From contig OX597822.1 in NCBI GenBank assembly GCA_951406725.2, positions 8,060,001 to 8,124,000 on the forward strand: DNA of 64,000 bases, given 5' to 3'. The notes beneath the pieces are model-generated. The model worked only from the letters and a program-made list of their open reading frames with translations. It was not told where the DNA came from and did no database searches. Source of the DNA: Octopus vulgaris (taxonomy: Eukaryota). Within the stretch, counting starts at the first letter, position 1, and each line of letters opens with the position of its first letter. Both the position numbers and the translations under genes were made by a program. Shown here in pieces: positions 4,021 to 48,380 of the stretch.

Positions 4021-4335
4021 AAATATTAGGGAATAAATCCAAATTTACAGGGAAAAATCAGATTTAGGATTAAATCCAATTTTATAGTAAAATAGTATAT
4101 AATATAATTCGAGACAAAACCAGTATTTTGCAAAACAAACAAGGAAAGACTTAATCAATACATAAAAATTTTTAATATAAAGAAATAAACCGCCACTACA
4201 ATCGTTTCATGTCTTCAATGACATTCGTCAGGTGGATTTTCGATCTCCTAATCTGTTTTAATTTATGAAGTGGCGGTTTATTTCTTTATATTAAATTTTT
4301 TTATGTATTGATTAAGTCTTTCCTTGTTTGTTTTG
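4021..4335. mobile_element. Short fold-back element between (TA)n tracts, with ~66-bp inverted arms 4131-4197 and 4269-4335
   Basis: CAAAACAAACAAGGAAAGACTTAATCAATACATAAAA...AAACCGCCACT is reverse-complemented at 4269-4335. A hammerhead lies at the apex. Confidence 0.8.
4193..4235 (-). ncRNA. Minimal type I hammerhead ribozyme (canonical core)
   Basis: Minus strand reads CCAC CUGACGA AUGUC-auugaa-GACAU GAAA CGAUUG UA|GUGG. Stem I has 4 bp, stem II has 5 bp, helix III is near-palindromic, and the cleavage triplet is GUA. Confidence 0.8.
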
Positions 4336-5985
4336 AAATAGAAATATATATATATATTTATATCGAATATATATATATATATATATAAGTATATAAAATG
4401 GAAATAAACAGTCTCTGACTGCTATTTCTAATTCTTTCGGTATGCGGCAGAGCAACCTGTTGCCTGCCCTTTTACTTATATACTATATATACTGAACTCT
4501 ACAGAAGTTCCCGACGCTAAAATTGTAAATAATTGCTGGTTGTCTGAAAAACCATCGAAAAAATTATTTACCCTTTTATTATATATATATATATATATAT
4601 ATATATATATATATATATTTAATACCATTGTTCCATTATTGGTGATATCAACAAAGAAAATACTCCAATACAAAGATTTAAACGTGAGCTACTGTTAATT
4701 TCGTGCATCTGAATGAAAATACAATGTTCTGAGAAGCCTGTGTAGCATGTTGCATATTTTCAGACAATCATTCAAACTTGAAATCATGTTTCTATTAAAT
4801 GATCTTCATGTGTGATTGTGTTCCTGATTGTGTGAGCGCGTGTGTGTACAACCACACAGAGCGCCATTCGGTAAAATACAGATACCAGTAACTTGCTTCA
4901 TTCAAACAAAAGAGACTACTTACTATGCTAGTGACATGGCTGAGATGTCGGAAAATATTTTGTGTGCATACCTGTATGTAAACGTATATTACCTACGAAC
5001 TTATATATAGTTTTGCTTTTAATCTATCTTTTTTTTTTTCCTTCAGGACGACTGAGTATATAGTAGAAAAAGTAAACGTGTTAATAGCTGAATGCAAACG
5101 TGATAAATTTCTCACCTCAATTATTTTGGCGTCTGTTCAATATCTACATGCTACACATGAAATGAAATAAAGAAATTATATTACACGACACAGTATTATC
5201 TCGAATTAACAGCCTGGTGATCCTATAAATTTTGAATGGTATTCATATAGTTATATTGAAAATCTGATTACCTGCATTCTGTTTATTCCCTGCTCAGTTT
5301 CCCCATTTCACCATGTATTGTTAAAATGAATTAGGTGATTTAATATGCTACTCTATTTCAAAGGAAGATTAATATCGCATAGCGAAAACACCTTTCGATA
5401 ATATTTCAAGTGTTCAGGTGGTGGCATTACAGAAAGCAAAGTGTTCCGAGCTTTATTGTTTTATTTTTATTAAATATCGTGCATCGCTAAAATAAATGCC
5501 ATCTTTATGTGCCAGTTTAGGTAAATGCTTCTACACATTCCCCTTATATATCAGTAGTCTTGTAATAGGTAATACTCAACATAGATTTAATTCTTGCAGA
5601 GGGTATATGTCATTCACTTACGAAATATTAAAGCAACACTAGCTATATAGCTACATTATGATACTAAAGTTATCGTCTAGAATGTAATATTAAAGGACAT
5701 AAATAAGTTGAACTTTCCCTATATACATACAACTTTAACAGTTTTACGCACGACTTGGTGTAATTACTGTCGAAATTTCTTGCTCTCAAACTTTATCGTC
5801 TTTAAAAAAGGTTGCTTAGATAGCTTGATTCTGAGTGGATTACATTGGGGGGAAATGAAAAATAGAATAATGGGCTTATTTACAGAGTATTTAATCAACC
5901 GTCGACTCAGTCAATCTACATTGAAATAATAACCATAACACAAGATATTTTTATCCAATCAAAACAAACAGTTAATACTCAGTAT

Positions 5986-6422
5986 GGATCTTTTCCGTTT
6001 GAACGGCTGTTTTTCTAACGGTGTCATATGAAATTGTCACCCATAATAATGACCCTAGTATCGATCTATTGCATTTCAATCTGTTTTAGGATTAGGGTTA
6101 TTTAGGGTTATGGTTAGGGTTAGGGTTGGAGGAAGGGTATCTTTTTTTCTTCACAAATGTAAATAAACCCAATCTGTTTCTTAAACGAAGGACATATTCA
6201 TACGGCACAGAATGTTTTCACCTCAATAGACGTCATTGATTGGTTGAAATTGCAGAAATTGAAGAAAAGAAGCAACAAATATCTTACAAACTATAAAATT
6301 TTCGCAATAAAACCAAGAGAAAAAGATGTTTTATAGACACATTCTACCAGTATACGCAGTTTAAAAGTGTTTAGTTACGTGGAAATTATTTTAAAAAACT
6401 GCCGTTCAAACCGAAAAGATCC
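5986..6422. mobile_element. MITE (non-autonomous DNA transposon) with ~30-bp TIRs, 8-bp TSD and internal TTAGGG repeats; Merlin-like or hAT-like
   Basis: TIRs GGATCTTTTCCGTTTGAACGGCTGTTTTT / AAAAACTGCCGTTCAAACCGAAAAGATCC. TSD CTCAGTAT at 5978-5985 and 6423-6430. Confidence 0.9.
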
Positions 6423-7411
6423 CTCAGTATTGACAATAAATCATATTCGTGCATATTTTAAAGGTGGTGAGTAATGCCTAAGCAACACACAGTGTTCCTC
6501 ATTGAAAATATTGACGTGTCCGCTGTTTATTTTAACTTAGTCTAGCAATGATTGCATGGAAGATGCATGGAAGCGTGCAGGAATTCTTGTGCTTTGTAAA
6601 TCTAGGAAAAAAATACTGTGTGGCATATTTAGCTTGGGCTGTAGTAGTCAAAAGCAAATGCGGCAACAGGAGTAGGTAAGCGTGACAAGAGTTCTATCGT
6701 GAAGAATAGCAAATAAAATAACGAATTTGTCATTTATTCATTCCTGTACTACAAGTTTGATTTGGCAGGTATAACAGAACATGAGACAAAATGCATTTTG
6801 TAATTTGTTCCAGGTTTCTGCGCATTTATTTCATATCAGTTTAAGGATTACTTTATTTATTACTCTTCCTTCGTCAATAAATAAATGATTGGCTATAAAC
6901 TTCTGCAATTCCTGTCTGCCTTATCCTCTCCGTCTTTCGTTCCCTTTTTTCACTCGAAATCAGCTACTGTTCGTGGATGTAACATTGCTAAGACCCTTTT
7001 TTTCAGAAGTGAAGGAGCGTTGAGACACAAACTACAAATGTCTTCTCGTGGAGAGTATGACAATAACTAATGTTATTGAAACTGCTCAATGATGCAGCTA
7101 TGCAAAGGAGAGAAGCTATAGATAAAGAAAAGAAAAAAACTATTTAAAAAGCAGTGATTCAAAATATTAGAACACCATTTTCCTAATGCCGGGTTTTAAT
7201 TGACTGGTAATCATATAGCAGGGGAGAGGAAGCAAGCTCTTTAAGGCATCAGATTGAATACATTCCTCTACTTATTCTTGGCCCCTACTAAGTTACCTGA
7301 AGCAAATTATTCTTTCAAACATGCGAATTCGATAAATAAATAAATATACTAGTCAAGCACAGTGATTGCTTTCTCTGTCTGAATGTTTGTCTATATCTTT
7401 CTGTTTCTTTT

Positions 7412-7448
7412 TCTCTCTCTCTCTCTCTCTCTCTCTCTCTCTCTCTCT
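7412..7448. repeat. (CT)n microsatellite
   Basis: Seen directly. Confidence 0.95.
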
Positions 7449-46672: not shown

Positions 46673-47539
46673 ATATATACACACACATGTACGTTACTTT
46701 GATAGCGTCCTGAATGCGTTCCTCTTCTCCCACCCCTTACTTCCATCTCTCTTTCGCTAGCGGTTATTTTTTGTTCTTCTTTTTCTTTCCCCCCTCCCTA
46801 CGTTTAAGAAATACTTCCCATCTCTCTTGTCTGTTATAATTAGTATATGTATACACCAAGAGATTTTTATGCGCGTCCGTATATGTATATGTGTGTATGT
46901 GTATTTGAGCGTATATTTATGTCTTACATATATGCCTGTTTATATATGTAGCTATATGCATGCATCTGTGTATTTTGATGTATATATGTATACTATAGAT
47001 GGTCTAGTATGCGTATAAACTGTGGTTAAATATTTATGTAATGCAGCGTGAACATTTTATTTTTAATGTATTGACTTATATTTCGTATATAATTATTTAC
47101 AATACGTATTTTGAATCTTCTCTTCGATTTAAGGTTTTCTTCCATTTTATAATAGGATGAATGTACATTGAATCCATTTATTTTGTTCATTGCATGTTTA
47201 AGACTGTTAATTGAAATGACCAATGAAACAAATCCATTTTTGAAGGTGTATCCTTTAAATAGTGTTGATTATATCGTTATTTCTGTTCCATTTTAACAAA
47301 ACTGTCCGACGAACGGGAACGCGATCTTTATTATTGTCACACTGCCTTCTGCGTAGAGTGACAATAATAAAGTTGTTACTATCGTGGTTACGTGATTGAA
47401 GTTTGAGCCCGATGGATCTATTTTTCTTTCTGGCTTTACAGTGTAAGCCTAGCCGCTCCACTAGCAATGTGCAACATTGAAGAACGAAGAGCAGTGATCC
47501 AGTCAGCAATGCAAGATAGAGTGCTTTGGTGACGAAAAA

Positions 47540-47863
47540 ACTAAAGCCAGCTATTCGCACCAACTGCGTTCTCTATTGTCGAAGCACGTCCACACACGGC
47601 CGACCAGATCATGGAAACCATTAACAAACTGAGTTTTTAGGGGCGGAAACACTCTGCCTACAACCCAGATCTCGTCCCTTTCGACTATCATATCTTTCGA
47701 ATGCTCAACGATGGTTTACAAGGTGGTCGATTACCTACGGATGAAGATGTGAAGGAAGCTGTGCACGAACAACCGTAAACATTCTTCTCGGATGGAATAC
47801 GCAAAGCTTGTAGACCACTGGGCCATGTGCATCGAAAAGAAAAGAGATTATATAGAAGAATAA
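47540..47863 (+). pseudogene. mariner transposase C-terminal remnant
   Basis: HSAYNPDLVPFDYHIF (YSPDLAPSDY-like)..DEDVKEAVHE..FFSDGIRKLVDHWAMCIEKKRDYIEE*. Confidence 0.85.
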
Positions 47864-48164
47864 CAGACTCTTGTCTATCATGCTTTTGCTTAAATACATC
47901 AAAAAGCAAGAATACGTATAAGATTTTACTGTCCCTCATACACACGTACACACACACACACACATAGAAATCATTGTGGTTACGTGAGCATAGTAGTACC
48001 AACTATAAGCACGCATGCGCAGAAGGCAGTGTGATAATAATATAGACACGTTATGGTGAAAGCGCTGATACATTTTGACTTACCCTCGTACATATATATA
48101 TATATATATATATATATATATACGACAAATTGGAGTTGTAAGGTACCGCACGAGTTGAATTATA

Positions 48165-48380
48165 ATACGAAAGAAGGCTTGAAAATGTAATTTTAAAAGA
48201 TGCTTATTTACTTTACCGGTTTCACTTTTTAGAAAAAAGATTGTCAAAATTATTGTCACAACCAATATTTAACGCAACCAAACTTCTACATGTTACTTTT
48301 GACAACCTTTTTCTAAAGAGTGAAACCGGTAAAGTAAATAAACATCTATTAAAATTGCATTTGCAAACCTTCCTTTGTAT
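48165..48380. mobile_element. Fold-back element with ~84-bp inverted arms between (TA)n tracts
   Basis: TTATTTACTTTACCGGTTTCACT..TTAGAAAAA..TTGTCAAAA is mirrored by TTTTGACAA..TTTTTCTAAAGAGTGAAACCGGTAAAGTAAATAA. Confidence 0.85.
48293..48337 (+). ncRNA. Type I hammerhead candidate with compensatory U3-A8 core
   Basis: UUACUU UUGACAA CCUUU-uucu-AAAGAGU GAAA CCGG UA|AAGUAA. Stem I has 6 bp, helix III is the palindrome ACCGGU and the site is GUA. Stem II is imperfect at its base. Confidence 0.55.

Follow-up and report, generated by a model that had tools for sequence, protein, structure and literature searches.

In the genome of Octopus vulgaris, a stretch of 64,000 nucleotides (nt) on contig OX597822.1 (the window; positions 8060001–8124000 of that contig in a 2.8-Gb assembly) contains seven short units, each with a motif resembling a type I hammerhead ribozyme and most of them arranged as inverted pairs. 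The locus raises the question of what these units are and how their paired copies are made. They are mostly of a known kind, namely fragments of the pseudo-long terminal repeats (pLTRs) of Penelope-like elements (PLEs) with hammerheads, an architecture that has already been described. New here are two fixed 3′ ends with a pairing of long and short arms, and spliced fold-backs in one family, as evidence on the PLE copying mechanism. On our reading, to which we give a probability of roughly 0.78, the units are pLTR pieces and the fold-backs arose by double nicking of the target and priming at two fixed sites, likely on one sense RNA.

Hammerhead motifs and their families

The units are labelled U1–U7 in their order along the window, and +n and −n denote the distance from the predicted hammerhead cut. 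Their features in the window are as follows (UTR, untranslated region; cDNA, complementary DNA; tRNA, transfer RNA).

4021–4271, minus strand: U1 long-end arm, adjoining (TA)n and apparently derived from a Hydra-clade PLE RNA as a spliced, cDNA-like copy of its 5′ end; it holds a 27-nt exon 1, the hammerhead and the 5′ UTR to the far 3′ end
4245–4271, minus strand: U1 exon 1, from an initiator-like start to the splice donor, joined to exon 2 at 4245/4244
4193–4235, minus strand: U1 type I hammerhead, intact, with C3-G8 core and palindromic helix III; predicted cut at 4197/4196
4270–4338, plus strand: U1 inverted second arm, starting 1–2 nt from the predicted cut site; no ribozyme core
20965–21283, plus strand: U2 long-end arm, part of a non-coding, retrozyme-like tandem unit of 470 nt
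20976–21040, plus strand: U2 hammerhead, with a private G12C change
20788–20967, minus strand: U2 inverted arm; CUGANGA core absent, private CAAA also here
21428–21621, minus strand: U3 long-end arm, hammerhead mutated
21629–21779, plus strand: U3 short-end arm, intact G3-C8 hammerhead
21848–22172, minus strand: U4 solo copy, a 5′-truncated PLE 3′ UTR/pLTR with its short end at (TA)n
21890–21970, minus strand: U4 hammerhead, intact
34841–35143, minus strand: U5 short-end arm, Hydra-clade PLE pLTR with an intact hammerhead at 35001–35087
35125–35236, plus strand: U5 inverted arm, far 3′ end only
43880–44045, minus strand: U6 left arm, Poseidon-like PLE pLTR, hammerhead with G5A
44061–44395, no strand assigned: unrelated repeat, a later insertion into the internal (AAT)n of U6
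44557–44585, minus strand: B-box remnant of the U6 tRNA-like head
44586–44790, plus strand: U6 right arm, with internal (AAT)n, PLE reading-frame start and a hammerhead with U4C at 44697–44742
48125–48249, minus strand: U7 long-end arm, bearing a one-sided tail
48254–48383, plus strand: U7 short-end arm, with a U3-A8 hammerhead-like motif of irregular stem II

All seven motifs are present where the initial annotation of this DNA had placed them. The boundaries proved wider than it had given for U2 (to ~21283), U3 (from ~21428), U4 (to 22172) and U7 (from ~48125), and to its five inverted pairs a sixth fold-back must be added, since U5 too is paired with a short inverted arm. A ribozyme core is missing from the second arm in U1, U2 and U5. 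The siting of the units beside microsatellites needs one correction, as the (AAT)n of U6 belongs to the element and not to its target. The repeat inserted there (44061–44395) also sits in the AAT tract of three other loci (L006, L017 and L027).

Two descriptors were applied: a strict one, defined by the exact type I core with any 3–8 pair, GAAA and a palindromic helix III, and a loose one, relaxed to admit decayed U2 and U6 copies. In a comparison with shuffled sequence, one of the checks that the initial annotation had named beforehand, the strict descriptor yielded five window sites, where 25 local dinucleotide shuffles averaged 0.52 (maximum 3). These are the hammerheads of U1, U3, U4 and U5 and a site at 56337 that looks like a chance match. 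The loose descriptor found 17 sites against 16.2 in shuffles, which is chance level, and still missed U7; proof of the motifs therefore rests on the families. Among the 150 rows listed by an Rfam search of the window, nearly all microsatellite-driven microRNA matches, there is neither a hammerhead nor a tRNA, and ARAGORN found no tRNA in the window.

A genome search gave a multicopy family for every one of the seven units. The first-look candidates (1107–4597 per family) are lower bounds that may include sister families and are not copy numbers; family tests used the 30 best loci per unit, which are best matches to the query and not random copies. The strict hammerhead is present in 30 of these loci for U1, 19 for U2, 26 for U3, 30 for U4, 16 for U5, 18 for U6 and 2 for U7. 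The assignment of a type I hammerhead to each unit thus holds for six families, most copies of which have a canonical one, with U7 as the exception. The G3-C8 core pair is a family-wide variant of U3 (26/30 loci), and both core changes of the U6 window copy are private decay. The CAAA reported for one unit does occur in both arms of U2; it is private to the window copy, the family having GAAA. Over 16 related hammerheads the core is invariant and 94.6% of stem cells are paired, with 59 double changes against 20 in shuffles; this evidence is partly circular because the rows were selected by a pairing descriptor.

In a random sample of 40 stretches of 10 kb (400 kb), 22 sites were found against a mean of 4.6 in 10 shuffles, or 9 against 0.4 with stricter stems, which gives a background of about one true site per 23 kb. 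By extrapolation, the genome would hold on the order of 100,000 intact hammerhead motifs. The density of about one unit per 9 kb noted for the window is accordingly not peculiar to it, the window being only modestly richer than random stretches. Many of these would lie within inverted repeats of 150–250 bp, which would give double-stranded RNA if read through. The flanks of the loci contain more than 12 further hammerhead types, several with a long stem II.

Coding parents

U1, U4, U5 and U6 are pieces of the pLTRs of coding PLEs, as contiguous reverse transcriptase (RT) or GIY-YIG endonuclease (EN) frames in other copies show. The derivation from pLTRs proposed in the initial annotation is borne out for these four units. 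The U1 parent was found by extending a loose end present in public contigs, and the links of U1 run to an RT frame that shares 93% identity with an intact 841-aa PLE, and upstream to an EN frame (L354, L355). A protein search with the U5 RT yielded many intact frames of 820–860 aa, whose 5′ UTR is a 90% sister of U1. Upstream of U4, the sequence continues into a GIY-YIG frame in L150 and is common to L143; U4 copies are collinear with the parent. For U5, a near full-length copy (L247) comprises an inverted pLTR, a frameshifted RT-EN, a 2.3-kb AT-rich UTR, tandem pLTRs and (TA)n. U6 lies 3′ of the EN stop of a Poseidon-like element. Among 30 loci found with the EN end as query, the tRNA-like head of U6 is present in 28 and its hammerhead tail was matched in 26, and the reading frame of the next unit begins just upstream of the hammerhead and reads through it.

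The parents were placed by motifs. Those of U1 and U5 have RWK, DKT, a CxCX5C linker and CxxC/CxH and lack a two-cysteine GIY-YIG core, which identifies them on motif grounds as Hydra-clade PLEs. The frames of U4 have CxxC/CxH, with DKT in a relative and the CxCX5C linker absent, and its parent probably belongs to the Hydra clade. The U6 parent has DKG and a GIY-YIG core with two cysteines, lacks a zinc-finger linker and begins its frame at the hammerhead; by these motifs it is Poseidon-like (Penelope/Poseidon clade). An assignment to Neptune was dropped after the motif check. Pfam recognised none of the PLE frames apart from one weak GIY-YIG match.

Several related copies were seen beside these families. 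The U4 lineage targets (TA)n despite the absent CxCX5C linker. Around its hammerhead, the pLTR of a U4 relative (L286, ~930–1330, minus-strand reading) is enclosed in an internal inverted repeat of ~55 nt. In L296 (~1590–1640, minus-strand reading), 46 nt from the 5′ end of U3 are inserted into a PLE frame, with an 11-nt direct repeat. In L283, L284 and L244, Hydra-type PLE frames contain asparagine-rich linkers of up to 1090 aa, such as have been reported from rotifer PLEs.

U2 is of a different kind. Its upstream sequence is its own downstream sequence, with a 470-nt period that is seamless in L083, and the longest ATG frame of the reference copy is 47 aa. U2 fits a non-LTR retrozyme-like unit in that its 470-nt monomers are non-coding and follow one another seamlessly, each with a type I hammerhead, and the retrozyme-like nature suggested by the initial annotation suits this unit. 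In the loci examined, U1 and U3–U7 have no seamless monomers and their tandems are partial; the idea of U1 and U3 as tandem circles closed by (TA)n was given up, as no tandem copies were found. A sister of U2 at 66–71% identity occurs in L292 (3248–4011; tandem and inverted) and L383 (6064–6537). A second retrozyme-like unit, with a U3-A8 hammerhead core, forms a family of tandems and fold-backs that repeats every ~360 nt (L369:8500–9600, L073, L389, L356).

Upstream of U7, CA-rich sequence extends for at least 1.7 kb and resembles the UTRs of the other parents. An EN-like segment beside long U7 copies was rejected as a coding link: it is the LTR of a 2-kb element, and U7 was present in 0 of 27 non-self loci. 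This TG...CA LTR (L306–L335) belongs to an abundant, apparently non-coding LTR element (766 candidates). The description of the units as non-autonomous elements of many families is mostly not supported and fits U2 best; U1, U4, U5 and U6 are contiguous with coding PLEs in other copies and look like short or truncated by-products of these rather than self-propagating mini-elements.

Two 3′ ends and the pairing of arms

Every family has two discrete 3′ ends, a short and a long one, at approximately +105/+190 (U1), +160/+250 (U2), +91/+155 (U3), +55/+215 (U4), +177/+270 (U5), +53/+85 (U6) and +52/+108 (U7). Fold-backs make up 98 of 196 distinct loci, a set from which 14 loci repeating an insertion had been removed. 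Both ends are classifiable in 84 fold-backs (an end is unclassified in the other 14), and 77 of these pair a long with a short arm, against 5 long–long and 2 short–short pairs (p 3e-16 against an expectation of 0.5). Among 52 long–short pairs from U1, U3, U4 and U7, 17 have the short arm as the one extending further 5′ and 13 the long arm; the two are equal in 13, and 9 were unscored. Because either arm can be the longer at the 5′ side, snap-back copying of one from the other is not enough to explain the pairs, and a single snap-back cDNA could not yield the two orders. The arms of one locus have 71 minor variants in common, against 24 expected from other loci.

The 3′ ends are followed by (TA)n in most cases in U1, U4, U5 and U7, less often in U2 and U3, and almost never in U6. 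The 5′ starts are also confined: main arms of U1 start between −61 and −75 in 26/26 cases and arms of U3 between −45 and −70 in 30/30, and 10 of 28 U4 arms start at −147 to −154, with 8 extending further. The 5′ limits of U1 and U4 fall on TCA-type initiator-like motifs, the initiator (Inr) consensus serving as reference.

Loss of the U1 intron

A 24-mer upstream of the U1 start has 18 matches, 14 of which continue from the 27-nt leader into a GT donor and an intron. This parental intron measures 1095–1571 nt in five copies measured end to end and closes with TTTTAG directly before the hammerhead exon. Four arms at two loci have no intron between the leader and the hammerhead exon, and neither has the window copy. 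The two loci carry diagnostic letters of two different intron-bearing subfamilies. An exact junction pattern retrieved 295 arms, and among the first 100 listed, for which splice state was scored, 72 are spliced and 28 unspliced; spliced arms are estimated at ~200 in the genome. Neighbouring U1 clusters (≤5 kb, n = 17, counted from the list) are spliced throughout in 13 cases, unspliced throughout in 4 and mixed in none (p 1.5e-4). Both matches of the random sample to the U1 clade are spliced mini-copies, one of U1 (L371) and one (L398) a fold-back of a sister family, spliced at a different donor, GTAAGT, without microhomology; the U1 junction has a 2-nt AG microhomology. Long U1 copies keep the intron.

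The mini-copies of U1 were likely copied from spliced messenger RNA (mRNA) primed twice, because the GT-AG intron of the parent is exactly absent from most of them. Contigs from runs guessed to be RNA cover U1 and the spliced junction; such contigs cannot show expression, ends or strand. The family is young (0.2% divergence), and with spliced arms beside intron-keeping long copies and related intact frames, it makes the open questions on PLE copying testable. One contig (C6:72319132–72319447) contains five unspliced U1 junctions with a 69-nt period in a fold-back.

A tRNA-like head in U6

The head of U6 has A and B boxes at tRNA spacing, judged by eye against the box consensus, and of the 18 loci that extend into the head, 14 begin between −12 and +4 relative to tRNA position 1. 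The head gave no Rfam tRNA match, and relaxed ARAGORN output was noise. Runs of T in the transcribed strand, whose depletion would point to Pol III, number 0 against 2.9 expected in L242 (p 0.04), a difference that is not significant in three other copies. The head is fixed in the coding element (the 28/30 EN loci above), and one coding PLE may use a captured tRNA-like promoter and spawn SINE-like (short interspersed nuclear element-like) hammerhead copies.

Proposed mechanism

The arrangement of the arms suggests the following course of events. A PLE protein, perhaps a dimer, would nick an AT-rich or (TA)n target on both strands, and reverse transcription would be primed twice, at two fixed sites on what is likely one sense RNA. 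Both priming sites would be placed shortly downstream of the hammerhead, close to the mRNA 5′ end. The cDNAs would end at the RNA start or before it and then join head to head by microhomology. RNA begun at the pLTR promoter and spliced would give only dead-end cDNAs of 150–300 nt, since with priming sites so close to the mRNA 5′ end spliced mRNA can yield only short intronless copies; read-through RNA primed in the downstream pLTR would give long or full-length copies with the intron. For U2, a circular or tandem retrozyme RNA may be served by the same machinery in trans. The hammerheads are probably weak cleavers, acting as dimers or with protein help, and may sometimes fix the template's 5′ end.

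We see an even chance that this scheme applies in full, with twin priming of a single sense RNA from two fixed sites, spliced mRNA giving short fold-backs and only read-through RNA founding long copies, U2 being mobilised by the same machinery and U6 using a tRNA-like promoter. If true, it would explain the intron retention of PLEs and rule out the antisense-template model.

Signs of hammerhead cleavage are weak. Of 59 second arms, 8 begin no more than 3 nt from the predicted cut, where 2.2 would be expected (U1, 3/10; U3, 4/10; U2, 1/11), which may be a trace of cleavage in vivo. Folding favours the monomer hammerhead in U3, U6 and U7; in U4 and U5, with a stem I probability of 0.00, it does not.

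Several points weigh against the double-priming reading. Splicing is seen only in U1 and its sister family, and two spliced U1 loci start ~60 nt upstream of the main start. The loci are best matches to a query, and the U1 query itself contained the spliced junction. Variants shared by the arms of a locus could stem from a common source locus or gene conversion and not from one RNA. The coding link of U5 depends on a single copy (L247), with which L246 has only the UTR in common. For U2, U3 and U7 no coding link was found in 30 loci each and in extended loci, among the matches listed. The U7 motif keeps the core, helix III and a 6-bp stem I, with an irregular stem II and a strict match in 2/30 loci. 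None of 28 second arms in U4–U7 starts at the cut site, and how the intron of the downstream pLTR escapes splicing is not accounted for by the model.

Alternative explanations

The units could instead be true non-autonomous families of SINE or retrozyme type, in which one processed master with its own internal promoter is remobilised in trans and the arms match via the master. Such families would have hard 5′ limits like those of U1 and U3 and no coding parent, as is the case for U2, U3 and U7; the seamless 470-nt dimer of U2 in L083 and the U6 copies beginning at a head with A and B boxes also agree with them, and PLE derivatives of that kind are known (PMC8557442; bioRxiv 10.64898/2026.07.22.740005; here and below, published work is described from the accessible parts of each source). 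A single processed master is harder to reconcile with spliced U1 copies that match two intron-bearing subfamilies, and with a sister family that behaves likewise. Moreover, the mini-copies end at the priming sites, whereas the anole PLE protein requires RNA beyond them (PMC11167929), and the tRNA-like head of U6 is fixed within the coding element. We regard this explanation as unlikely overall and as likely true for U2. Fold-backs could also arise by snap-back self-priming of one cDNA or from an antisense template, with the intron loss of U1 due to DNA deletion or a template jump. Self-priming has been put forward for rotifer PLEs (PMC3846280), the AG microhomology at the U1 junction would suit a deletion or jump, and near-perfect palindromic junctions occur, as do short snap-back pieces that have no 3′ end (L055, L058, L100, L119, L127). 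However, the loss is exact at GT-AG and repeated in separate lineages, with no microhomology at the sister junction, an antisense template would not splice at sense sites, and both ends are fixed with either arm reaching further 5′; we consider this route quite improbable. For the U1 family, the double-priming model would conflict with the published antisense self-priming idea.

A further possibility concerns the ribozymes, which might be inactive relics carried passively, with no cleavage in vivo and no effect on insertions. Most copies span the cut site; PLE hammerhead activity is reported to be low or protein-dependent, and cleavage was dispensable for insertion in vitro (PMC4209133, PMC11167929); and the unfavoured monomer folds of U4 and U5 and the irregular U7 point the same way. 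The invariant core and covarying stems, partly circular as this evidence is, and the second arms that begin at the cut in U1 and U3 argue against this, and we find it doubtful that the hammerheads are relics. As regards the formation of fold-backs, passive relics are compatible with double priming.

Other features of the window

Two further copies of elements related to the main subject lie in the window.

54147–54289, minus strand: second U3-family copy, decayed
26200–28200, plus strand: decayed coding PLE of an eighth family, with RT-like and GIY-YIG-like frames

The decayed PLE has a degenerate hammerhead-like motif near 28066–28110, followed by (TG)n, and gave the weak Pfam GIY-YIG match (E 0.08); no relative was found among the loci compared. 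The initial annotation mentions neither this element nor the pairs of fixed 3′ ends, nor the likely origin of U1 from spliced RNA or the tRNA-like head of U6.

An inverted pair around a 170-nt direct repeat at 8685–9384, with one relative pair in L314, was rejected as a hammerhead: it has a CUGAUGA...GAAA core without a valid UH/stem I, as does the relative. A near-palindrome of 228 nt at 45070–45297 contains no hammerhead, and the loci compared include no relative of it. A fragment of a long interspersed nuclear element (LINE) RT (Pfam RVT_1) lies at 19303–20394 (plus strand). Of two abundant SINE-like repeat families, one occurs at 3136–3413, 9407–9641, 24415–24979, 41877–42107 and 46266–46679, and the other at 28767–29203, 38090–38490 and 41234–41645.

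Comparison with known systems

In the twin priming of L1, second-strand priming on the same RNA leads to a 5′ inversion; unlike in L1, the arms here overlap and would be primed at two fixed sites. The Sm-alpha SINE of Schistosoma joins a tRNA-derived head to a type I hammerhead; unlike in that SINE, the tRNA-like head of U6 belongs to a coding PLE and has no Rfam match.

Much of the architecture is familiar from PLEs. Their hammerheads have palindromic helix III and U3-A8 cores, occur as close pairs on opposite strands and follow an intron ending at helix I (PMC4209133). Inverted copies, one-sided tails, a (TA)n bias, the Hydra clade and an unexplained retention of introns have been described (PMC8557442; Craig et al. 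2021), and antisense self-priming was proposed for head-to-head copies and intron retention (PMC3846280). Open questions in this field are why introns are kept, which strand is copied, and how inverted repeats and one-sided tails arise (PMC8557442, PMC3846280). Spliced fold-backs would help explain intron retention in long PLE copies. In the accessible literature, with Repbase, Dfam and supplements outside its scope, we found no description of PLE mini-copies that are spliced and abundant, of long–short arm pairing with counts, or of a tRNA-like head in a PLE pLTR.

The Hydra-clade PLEs (PMC8557442) share with the U1 and U5 parents a C-terminal GIY-YIG, an RWK-type motif, DKT, CxCX5C, CxxC and CxH, as well as a pLTR hammerhead, (TA)n targets and an inverted 5′-truncated copy with a one-sided tail. 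Unlike the known members of the clade, the elements here have multi-kb 3′ UTRs and lengths of ~5–8 kb instead of <3 kb, a pLTR intron of 1.1–1.6 kb, and tails of 55–160 nt instead of 30–40; the relatives of U4 lack the CxCX5C linker, and spliced mini-copies are abundant, none being mentioned in the accessible parts of PMC8557442.

Non-LTR retrozymes, and their origin from PLEs, have been described (PMC7229834; bioRxiv 10.64898/2026.07.22.740005). Like them, U2 is a non-coding seamless tandem with one type I hammerhead per monomer; unlike them, U2 bears PLE insertion hallmarks (two 3′ ends and fold-backs) and has a monomer of 470 nt.

The pLTR of Penelope holds a promoter, an Inr and an intron (PMC2377424), and in Penelope of D. 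virilis, as here, promoter, start and an intron ending at helix I lie in the pLTR (PMC2377424, PMC4209133). As in Poseidon_Ac and Penelope, the U6 frame starts at the hammerhead; unlike in these, a tRNA-like head and (AAT)n lie between the EN stop and the hammerhead of U6. Poseidon_Ac and Penelope are known for genomic copies that keep the intron, whereas here it is lost in 72 of the 100 listed U1 junction arms. With the anole PLE in vitro, both strands were cleaved and extended, two internal starts were used, a dimer was predicted and the hammerhead was dispensable (PMC11167929). The two internal RT starts and both-strand priming of Poseidon_Ac (PMC11167929) may be compared with the two 3′ ends found here, which would link two starts seen in vitro to a genomic pairing of arm ends.

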